Positions 22,213-22,312 of a DNA stretch of 64,000 nt are shown piece by piece. The position numbers were made by a program, and so were the translations under genes. The notes under the pieces were generated by a model, which saw only the letters and a list, made by a program, of their open reading frames with translations, searched no databases and was not told the DNA's origin. Every line of letters begins with the position of its first letter. Position 1 is the first letter of the stretch. The stretch is from a phage, in sequence record NC_094493.1. One strand, given 5' to 3'.

Positions 22213-22312
22213 GCTAGGTAAGCCCTTTGGCAAGGGCGAGGATTTTTAATCCTGAAAATAGACGAGGTAGTCGTTGAATACATAGGTGGTTCGATTCCAT
22301 CACCTAGCACCT
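22213..22312 (+). tRNA. Atypical tRNA-like element, possibly Lys(UUU)-like or a pseudo-tRNA
   Basis: Canonical acceptor (GCTAGGT/ACCTAGC), D-arm and T-arm, but the middle has a short-stem hairpin with loop TTTTTAA and about 30 nt of extra sequence before the T-arm; no encoded CCA. Confidence 0.35.

Follow-up and report, generated by a model that had tools for sequence, protein, structure and literature searches.

A conserved tRNA-like element in the tRNA clusters of rV5-like phages

The closest described relatives in kind of the element discussed here are small tRNA-like RNAs encoded by the phages T4 and T5. The T5 record lists RNA1, RNA2 and RNA3 as tRNA-like or putative tRNA-like, and RNA1 and RNA2 as stable RNAs with functions given as unknown; RNAI, RNAIII and RNAIV are annotated in the same tRNA region. 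T4 makes the species 1 and 2 RNAs (rnaC and rnaD), small stable RNAs encoded at the end of its tRNA cluster, for which we still know of no function. The predicted folds of T5 RNA1, T5 RNA2 and T4 rnaC combine acceptor and T arms with an aberrant middle and an extra hairpin, and to our knowledge these RNAs of T4 and T5 have gone unexplained since their first description. The element that we call X lies on the plus strand at 22213-22311 of a 64,000-nt stretch of a phage genome (sequence record NC_094493.1; this whole stretch is the window), inside a tRNA cluster. We consider it probable that X is the gene for a conserved, structured, tRNA-shaped small RNA, and that it represents a distinct phage family of “tRNA mimics” that are neither ordinary decoding tRNAs nor pseudogenes.

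Phage tRNA clusters are now seen partly as counter-measures to tRNA-cutting bacterial defences. Several defence systems of E. coli cleave tRNAs and are countered by phage tRNAs (PMC12409363, PMC11555353, PMC13096335). PARIS cleaves Lys, Thr and Asn tRNAs, and the tRNA-Lys(UUU) of T5 is required for PARIS bypass (PMC12409363); phage tRNAs also allow evasion of retron Eco7 (PMC11555353), and Septu cuts tRNA-Tyr in its variable loop (PMC13096335). Beside codon-usage helpers and nuclease-resistant replacement tRNAs, X would be a third kind of resident of these clusters, a tRNA look-alike under strong selection that probably does not decode.

Anatomy and conservation of the element

The window comes from Escherichia phage rV5 (Vequintavirus); over the tRNA cluster its identity with DQ832317/NC_011041, and with many close relatives, is 100%. 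At 22213-22311 ARAGORN returns “tRNA-???” with anticodon (atcc), and the Rfam tRNA model RF00005 matches 22213-22309 with 35.5 bits (gathering score 29) and an insertion of 26 nt in the variable region, so that the element sits where the initial annotation had placed it. RNAfold gives an acceptor stem, a D hairpin, a hairpin of either 6 bp with a 3-nt loop or 5 bp with a 5-nt loop, a small extra hairpin and a T arm, with a minimum free energy (MFE) of -34.2 kcal/mol (z = -3.3; none of 200 shuffles folded as well). This agrees with the description in the initial annotation of canonical acceptor, D and T arms around an abnormal anticodon arm. The parts of X, with pairing counted over 29 sequences, are these:

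22213..22311 (+): the tRNA-like RNA gene X, 99 nt including the discriminator A and CC; recognised by ARAGORN, Rfam, the MFE fold and the family covariance model R1 (104.1 bits)
22213..22219 (+): 5' strand of the acceptor stem, GCTAGGT, partner at 22302-22308; 7 pairs, 100% paired, 5 changed on both sides
22220..22221 (+): positions 8-9, AA; A8 is invariant and mismatches the Rfam tRNA consensus, U8
22222..22237 (+): D arm, GCCC-TTTGGCAA-GGGC; 4 pairs, 100% paired, 3 changed on both sides
22238 (+): G26, an invariant column
22239..22253 (+): short “anticodon” arm, AGGAT-TTTTA-ATCCT, 15 nt compared with 17; 5 pairs, 95.8% paired, 3 changed on both sides
22254..22260 (+): strand 5' of the extra hairpin, GAAAATA; its G44 and run of A do not vary (element columns G42 and A44-A46) and are unpaired in the MFE fold
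22261..22275 (+): extra hairpin of the variable region, GACGA-GGTAG-TCGTT; a hairpin is present here in almost all of the sequences
22276..22284 (+): strand 3' of the extra hairpin, GAATACATA; its single-stranded ATACATA does not vary (element columns A66-A72)
22285..22301 (+): T arm, GGTGG-TTCGATT-CCATC; 5 pairs, 100% paired, 2 changed on both sides; C56 is 22292
22302..22308 (+): 3' strand of the acceptor stem, ACCTAGC, paired as given for the 5' strand
22309..22311 (+): discriminator A and CC, the terminal A not being encoded; TTTTT follows, then tRNA-Thr from 22317

The acceptor, T and D arms are those of a canonical tRNA, with a 7-bp acceptor stem, a 5-bp T stem, a 7-nt T loop of the UUCRANY type, and a D arm that carries G18 and G19 and forms the G19:C56 elbow. 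The residues of the D loop TTTGGCAA read U14 U15 U16 G18 G19 C A A21, G19 being 22230. The core position 8/14, the anticodon arm and the variable region, by contrast, all depart from the tRNA pattern.

Comparison with homologous clusters, a check proposed in the initial annotation, uncovered a conserved structured family. BLAST with the rV5 copy retrieved 128 phage (rV5-like) records, and with the Seunavirus copy 181 records from phages of Escherichia, Klebsiella, Salmonella, Cronobacter, Erwinia, Enterobacter, Proteus and Raoultella. Annotated X regions span five genera of the Vequintavirinae (Vequintavirus, Avunavirus, Seunavirus, Mydovirus and Henunavirus), with one copy per genome, and X also occurs in the tRNA cluster of an N4-like phage of the Schitoviridae, Salmonella phage UTK0002. 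Pattern scans detected more divergent members in IMG/VR and in metagenome contigs. The covariance model R1, built from 16 members, scores members at 90-123 bits, among them the N4-like one from outside the training set (100.2 bits), and the ordinary tRNAs of rV5, T4, T5 and other loci at 33 bits or less. There was no match to X among 5,426 complete E. coli genomes, and the single hit from a pattern scan of GTDB species genomes lay at a locus where R1 found no family member; on these two results a bacterial origin or prophage copy of X was rejected. Phages that carry X include such widely used ones as rV5, PVP-SE1 and the Vequintavirinae of the BASEL collection. We found no description of X and no expression data for it in the literature. 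As a side observation, 18 GenBank records of “Campylobacter phages” (MG0656xx; C15, C2, A12a and others) are 99-100% identical to the rV5 tRNA cluster, which suggests that they are mislabelled or contaminating rV5-like phages of E. coli.

Public records treat the element in many ways. Its interval is left empty in the rV5 RefSeq record, which lists six tRNAs, as does the rV5 genome paper. The BASEL records, annotated with tRNAscan-SE, label it tRNA-Lys, codon AAA; Erwinia phage records label it tRNA-TERM or tRNA-sup(tca), and others tRNA-OTHER, tRNA-TERM, “tRNA-???(atcc)” or nothing. Small “hypothetical protein” coding sequences, some with annotated ribosome-binding sites, overlie X in Proteus phage Mydo (locus L011, 803-1004), NINP13076, FENT2, SSE121 and others; these are probably annotation artefacts. 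Such mis-annotation, whether as tRNA-Lys, as a suppressor or as hypothetical proteins, distorts tRNA inventories and claims of suppression.

A MAFFT alignment of 16 distinct sequences has 99.4% of its helix cells paired, with 10 of the 22 pairs changed on both sides. A second, model-guided alignment of 29 distinct sequences favours its own structure, and the MAFFT result is concordant with it: 99.1% of helix positions are paired, 14 of 22 pairs have changed on both sides (covariation score 0.50), and all four cloverleaf helices covary. When the 3' partners were slid by one to three columns as a control, pairing in the 29 sequences fell to 31-45%. The tertiary elbow pair 19:56 is G:C in 20 sequences, where the D loop TTTGGCAA faces the T loop TTCGATT, and U:A in 9, where TTTGTCAA faces TTAGATT; it is unpaired in none. 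Because an exchange of G19:C56 for U19:A56 is hard to explain otherwise, it argues that the RNA itself takes the L-shaped fold of a tRNA. Helix substitutions inside the rV5 group also preserve pairing: A66 to G leaves U.G, G50 to A turns G.U into A-U, U64 to C turns G.U into G-C, and C72 to U leaves G.U. Between rV5 and the contig L021, X matches at 96 of 99 positions and the adjacent spacer at 68 of 98; between rV5 and Avunavirus, X matches at 89-92 of 99 and tRNA-Thr aligns over just 50 of 76. Together, these comparisons indicate that the structure of X is under selection.

Could X nevertheless be a decaying tRNA pseudogene, an option left open by the initial annotation, or a chance tRNA-like fold? 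ARAGORN names no anticodon for it, the rV5 genome paper counts six tRNAs, and the CCA is missing. Against this stand the near-complete pairing and the two-sided changes just described, the tertiary pair included, and the occurrence of X in two phage families. Nor is it a decayed copy of a neighbouring tRNA: its identity to its neighbours is 61-72%, and six unrelated tRNAs share 47-70% among themselves. Descent from a neighbour, or from the tRNA-Lys of E. coli, was rejected on this comparison. Since the helices covary through substitutions that keep pairing, since X outconserves both the adjacent spacer and, across genera, tRNA-Thr, and since it copies no neighbour, we reject the pseudogene reading. 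The other options in the initial annotation, a tRNA whose extra arm is unusual or an RNA derived from a tRNA, were right in spirit, and what the comparison adds is that X belongs to a conserved family of tRNA-shaped RNAs.

Decoding and the alternatives to it

If the shape is that of a tRNA, does it decode? The middle of the molecule is where the family leaves the tRNA pattern. The arm between the invariant G26 and G44 has 15 nt in the rV5/Av-05 group and in a class with the loop ATCAA, and 16 nt in Seunavirus and Mydovirus, compared with 17 nt in tRNAs. Its 5-bp stem carries a loop of 5-6 nt, which reads TTTTA in rV5, TTATA in Avunavirus, CATCCA in Seunavirus and Mydovirus (with the variants CAGCCA, CCTCCA, CTTCCA and CCTCAA) and ATCAA elsewhere. 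The closing pair is U-A under TTTTA and TTATA, C-G under the CATCCA type, and C.A, U-A or A.G under ATCAA. The initial annotation had drawn the rV5 arm as a 4-bp stem with a G.G mismatch, a 7-nt loop TTTTTAA and no residue 26, which is a legitimate drawing of the same bases; the family alignment prefers another, with G26, a 5-bp stem, a 5-nt loop and then G44. Drawn on the 4-bp stem plus G.G, the loops of the three classes come to 7, 8 and 7 nt. Either way the rV5 arm is two nucleotides, or one stacking layer, shorter than that of a standard tRNA, and every member lacks this layer whichever drawing is used. A 17-nt arm with U33 and a purine at 37 is not what the family has, and U33 appears solely in the rV5/Av-05 drawing.

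The core and the variable region are equally unusual. A8 and U14 are invariant in 29 of 29 sequences, at positions where tRNAs have the reverse-Hoogsteen core pair of U8 and A14, and U15 and the A just 5' of the T stem occupy the places of R15 and Y48; A8/U14 and U15/A, none of which varies, may be the canonical core pairs in swapped form. The variable region spans 31-40 nt across the family and matches neither the canonical 4-5 nt nor a class II arm. In rV5 it consists of 31 nt, with 7 unpaired nucleotides, a 5-bp hairpin and 9 unpaired nucleotides, which bears out the roughly 30 nt and second hairpin ahead of the T arm that had been noticed initially. Its first strand, G(U)AAAA..., and its last, ...AUACAUA, are invariant and unpaired, and the hairpin between them is of at least four types of unrelated sequence: that of rV5 (5 bp, loop GGUAG), that of PVP-SE1, one with a conserved 12-nt loop GAAYUAACAGUA and one with a loop UUUUAGG. 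Inside the hairpin types there are compensatory changes, from A-U to G-C in the rV5/Av-05 type and as covariation in the type designated C. The invariant A run could on paper pair with the invariant U14-U16 of the D loop, and neither side varies informatively. At the 3' end the rV5/Av-05 group has ACCT, ACAT, TACA or CACA and all other members an invariant TCCA; the true tRNAs of the rV5 cluster encode CCA in six of six cases.

Annotation programs register these departures. ARAGORN calls X in no member outside rV5, and while the rV5 copy exceeds the RF00005 threshold, the homologues in PVP-SE1, Mydo, Hena1 and Av-05 match, within the Rfam tRNA clan, the tRNA-Sec model best, with 23-39 bits where its gathering score is 47. 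The four-base anticodon “atcc” that ARAGORN draws for rV5 entails a broken D stem, and its intron mode proposes a tRNA-Gln(ttg) with a 5-nt “intron” and two mismatches; the intron and pseudogene modes named in the initial annotation yielded such unconvincing alternatives, neither of them conserved among the homologues. A reading in which CTGAAAA is the true anticodon loop (Phe, GAA) and the first hairpin an insertion was rejected because the flanks are unpaired in every member. A hammerhead-like core (CUGA...GAA around the extra hairpin) was rejected on inspection, since it lacks the required G8, A9 and cleavage-site context and Henunavirus does not keep the motif; Hfq (ARN) or CsrA (GGA loop) motifs are not shared by the different types of extra arm. 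ARAGORN reports no tmRNA, and the weak Rfam hits to permuted tmRNA and to the Y-RNA-like YrlA fall on the Met-Pro tRNAs and not on X.

From these comparisons a conserved decoding function for X appears unlikely, because the body is constant while the would-be anticodon differs, U33 is mostly absent and the arm is short. One body under strong selection would have to present UUU, UAU, a UCC/GCC-like triplet or UCA. X-bearing contigs also encode canonical tRNA-Lys(UUU) and tRNA-Gly(UCC), as called by ARAGORN.

One alternative takes the rV5 copy as a tRNA-Lys(UUU) that works and is aminoacylated, and whose body is unusual (an anticodon stem of 4 bp plus G.G, and a giant variable arm); it might be a nuclease-resistant replacement for the host tRNA-Lys, a target of PrrC and PARIS. 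The initial annotation had supposed that an altered loop could escape anticodon nucleases. The 7-nt loop UUUUUAA of the rV5 copy has U33, A37 and A38, and its discriminator is A73; the UUU anticodon and A73 are identity elements used by lysyl-tRNA synthetase (LysRS). The tRNAscan-SE-based BASEL annotation and the Rfam score above the tRNA gathering threshold agree with this reading, ARAGORN finds no other tRNA-Lys in rV5, and a phage tRNA-Lys(UUU), that of T5, is needed for PARIS bypass (PMC12409363). Across orthologues, however, UUU with A73 is confined to Vequintavirus. The Avunavirus relatives, 89-92% identical, keep the whole structure with UAU and a T or C at 73, the other genera have T73, and most of the family has 6-nt (or, in the other drawing, 8-nt) loops or A33. 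The UUU anticodon read in the initial annotation thus matches existing labels and finds no support at the level of the family, where TTATA, CATCCA and ATCAA loops take its place. UAU combined with T or C as the discriminator fits none of the synthetase identity sets that we know. The arm that is one layer short in all drawings, A8/U14 in place of U8/A14, the CCA left unencoded next to six tRNAs that encode it, and the additional canonical tRNA-Lys(UUU) of other X-bearing phages also count against a tRNA-Lys, which we regard as a doubtful reading though one to be taken seriously.

A different way to keep decoding is to divide it by lineage, so that X would be a set of recoding tRNAs for lineage-specific read-through: the ATCAA class would have an opal (UGA) suppressor, Seunavirus and Mydovirus a +1 frameshift type whose loop counts 8 nt, and rV5 a Lys type. 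tRNAs with 8-nt anticodon loops are known as frameshift suppressors. The Erwinia phage labels tRNA-TERM and tRNA-sup(tca) point the same way, as do the AUCAA core that is invariant in its class with tRNA-typical 32/38 combinations, the 39 bits that Hena1 reaches with the Rfam tRNA-Sec model, and a CUA-anticodon tRNA in two X-bearing contigs. However, the ATCAA class has A33 where U33 is near-universal, and 7/5 helices, a 4-bp D stem and U73 instead of the 8/5 acceptor/T helices, 6-bp D stem and G73 of tRNA-Sec; its scores with that model (RF01852) stay below threshold. The rV5 copy has no UCA and no other stop or frameshift anticodon. Recoding is neither known nor annotated in these phages, whose annotated genes have ordinary lengths in the standard code, and three decoding jobs on one conserved body would be unparsimonious. 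We find recoding improbable.

Several observations nonetheless weigh against a non-decoding tRNA mimic. The 7-nt loops of the rV5/Av-05 group, UUUUUAA and UUUAUAA, have a canonical U33, A37 and U32/A38; the rV5 version with A73 fits the LysRS rules and may, judging by its bases, decode AAA/AAG. In its 7-nt drawing the ATCAA class (C/U-A-UCA-A-A) has a tRNA-typical C32/A38 or U32/A38, and the invariance of AUCAA within the class points to selection on this loop, which could serve as an anticodon. Outside the rV5 group U73-CCA is encoded without exception, which suggests a 3' end of importance, as aminoacylation would need. Literature searches turned up no expression, end-mapping or aminoacylation data on X from any phage, no gene other than tRNA genes co-occurs with it, and the decoy role considered below is purely inferential.

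Genomic context and a possible role

ARAGORN finds six ordinary tRNAs in the rV5 cluster, Arg-UCU, Tyr, Ser-UGA, Thr-UGU, a tRNA with a CAU anticodon and Pro-UGG. The features that bear on the expression and surroundings of X are these:

22317..22392 (+): tRNA-Thr(UGU), 5 nt downstream of X (ARAGORN; Rfam 76.8 bits)
21657..21685 (+): promoter of the tRNA cluster, TTGACA-17-TAATAT, from a consensus scan; the rV5 RefSeq record has P(tRNA) at the equivalent position
21988..22016 (+): promoter-like TCGAAA-17-TATAAT upstream of tRNA-Ser, a consensus match alone (10/12)
16803-17735 (-), 17779-18243 (+) and 18149-18805 (+): adjacent RNA-repair-like genes, 4-5 kb from X

The promoter-like site at 21988-22016 is a candidate start, by its consensus match, for a transcript with Ser, X, Thr, Met/Ile and Pro. 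Of the three RNA-repair-like genes, the first codes for an RNA ligase of the Rnl1 type (PF09511, 55.5 bits), the second for an AAA_33 P-loop kinase and the third for a calcineurin-like phosphoesterase; the rV5 record names them RNA ligase 1, ATPase and phosphoesterase. By analogy with Pnk and Rnl1 of T4, the trio looks like a set for the repair of RNA breaks, which suggests that rV5-like phages meet tRNA-cleaving defences.

In the pathway that we propose, X would be co-transcribed with the flanking tRNAs, and RNase P would cut its 5' end; by cutting tRNA-Thr, too, at its 5' end, the enzyme would release X's 3' trailer, exonucleases would trim this U-rich trailer to ACC, and the host CCA-adding enzyme would complete the 3' end. 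The product would accumulate as a stable L-shaped RNA of about 100 nt. With less confidence, we suppose that it reads no codons and is bound as a tRNA look-alike by some tRNA-recognising factor conserved in Enterobacterales or in the phages, for which the conserved short loop and the invariant strands of the variable region would form a candidate specific contact surface. Since the only constant genomic partners of X are tRNA genes, and these vary in identity, it probably works with host factors common to Enterobacterales.

Might processing itself be the whole of its role? As a cis-acting “punctuation mark”, X would serve solely to recruit RNase P and so shape the maturation or stability of the polycistronic tRNA transcript. 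It lies in the operon at close spacing (5 nt from tRNA-Thr in rV5, 1-3 nt after the preceding tRNA in other genera), and the module of acceptor, T arm and elbow that RNase P recognises is its most canonical part. Yet each flanking tRNA already has an RNase P site, the neighbours of X vary by genus (Thr, Ile, Ser, Leu or Asn), and such a role would leave the GAAAA and AUACAUA strands, the conserved short loop and the encoded U73-CCA unexplained. We give it little weight.

Among concrete roles for a tRNA mimic, that of a decoy or inhibitor of tRNA-targeting host defences seems the most plausible, given the tRNA-cleaving defences and the phage tRNAs discussed above. X would then be a dedicated anti-defence, non-decoding tRNA decoy carried in the tRNA clusters of at least two phage families. 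The canonical elbow and acceptor end would let it be processed and recognised as a tRNA, and the short loop and invariant strands would trap or inhibit an Enterobacterales nuclease (PARIS/AriB, PrrC/RloC, Septu/PtuAB, OLD or Schlafen-type), protecting the tRNA pool. In this specific form the proposal is tentative and rather unlikely. If true, it would make X the first RNA-level inhibitor of tRNA-directed immunity and provide a functional lead for the tRNA-like RNAs of T4 and T5. The family is compact and easily deleted or expressed, which makes it a tractable entry to the role of T4 species 1/2 and T5 RNA1-3; even if the function proved trivial, a clean covariance model and a corrected annotation would have been gained.

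The surroundings of X hold further structured or unannotated sequences, which we record as side observations. In the window, the 98-nt spacer between tRNA-Ser and X (22115-22212, +) folds into three hairpins within a 9-bp stem (UGUUGACC.../...GGUCAACA; z = -2.57) with a cloverleaf-like outline and no T-loop motif; this spacer is poorly conserved, matching at 68 of 98 in L021 and being absent in Avunavirus. The AT-rich spacer between tRNA-Tyr and tRNA-Ser (21910-22023, +) forms a long near-perfect hairpin (z = -4.45, 0 of 200 shuffles) that overlaps the promoter-like site at 21988-22016. The CAU tRNA at 22394-22468 (+) is tRNA-Met according to ARAGORN and the rV5 record and tRNA-Ile (codon ATA) according to the BASEL records; in the T4 cluster, a tRNA-Ile gene directly follows tRNA-Thr, as the CAU tRNA does in rV5. 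The rV5 record also joins the gene for the terminase large subunit (~23660-26500, +) from three pieces, with an HNH endonuclease gene within.

In other genomes, Escherichia phage Av-05 (L002) has at 1298-1383 a second unannotated tRNA-like sequence, GGCGGTG...GAGGTTCGATTCCTCCACCGTCTACCA, which ARAGORN does not call and which scores weakly with Rfam tRNA-Sec (29.6 bits) and with R1 (14 bits). tRNA-like fragments lie downstream of X in Av-05 and in a Seunavirus locus (L001, ~1800-1960). Two metagenomic X contigs carry what ARAGORN calls “tRNA-Pyl” with the amber-suppressor-type anticodon CUA (L055, 7862-7934; L064, 2791-2865). In UTK0002 (L067) ARAGORN finds at 2410-2495 a tRNA-Ser(UGA) that is not in the GenBank annotation, and the 400 nt upstream of X contain further structured-looking sequence.

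Comparison with known tRNA-like RNAs

Four groups of RNAs invite comparison with X. Class II tRNAs (Ser, Leu and Tyr) and tRNA-Sec share with it a long variable-arm hairpin between the anticodon and T arms. Class II variable arms join the core through 0-2 unpaired nucleotides, whereas X has 7 + 9 invariant unpaired bases, an anticodon arm of 15-16 nt and A8/U14. The 8/5 helices, 6-bp D stem and G73 of tRNA-Sec are absent from X, and the Rfam tRNA-Sec match is accordingly weak (23-39 bits).

The tRNAs that replace those cut by defences (Lys, Thr and Asn of T5 against PARIS, tRNA-Tyr of T5 and T6 against retron Eco7 and Septu) reside, like X, in the tRNA clusters of E. coli phages. The rV5 copy resembles them further in being Lys(UUU)-like, in lying beside tRNA-Thr(UGU) and in belonging to a phage with an RNA-repair gene set. 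The replacement tRNAs, however, are canonical, decode, and differ by point changes (PMC12409363, PMC11555353, PMC13096335), while the body of X is non-canonical and its loop unconserved across the family.

A tRNA shape without decoding has a precedent in mascRNA, which derives from MALAT1, has a reduced anticodon loop, is processed by RNase P, receives CCA and does not decode. This is the logic proposed for X, although mascRNA is eukaryotic and unrelated: the Rfam mascRNA model has no match on X, and its sole weak hit in the region falls on the tRNA at 22394-22464.

The nearest counterparts in phages are the stable RNAs of T5 and T4. The T5 RNAs, like X, lie among tRNA genes on the same strand and combine an acceptor stem, a D arm and a T arm (of the GGUUCGAAUCC type) with an aberrant anticodon arm and an extra hairpin. 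They differ in having enlarged anticodon arms and 125-144 nt overall, where in X the arm is shortened and the variable region enlarged, and they have been seen as stable transcripts, where X is a predicted RNA. T4 rnaC partly resembles X in its fold, in which extra hairpins accompany a T arm and a closing stem like that of an acceptor, but the T4 RNAs are far less cloverleaf-like, and their MFE fold shows neither an evident elbow nor a canonical D arm. Homology is not the basis of these likenesses, as R1 finds no member at T4 rnaC/rnaD or the T5 stable RNAs, and in the T4 and T5 regions it scores highest on true tRNAs, at 27 bits or less. In its place within a tRNA cluster, on the same strand, in its tRNA-like acceptor and T arms and in its apparently non-decoding middle, X is on structural grounds like the stable tRNA-like RNAs of T4 and T5 in kind and of a different family: a new and well-defined family of a known kind, the phage tRNA-like stable RNAs, and not a new category.

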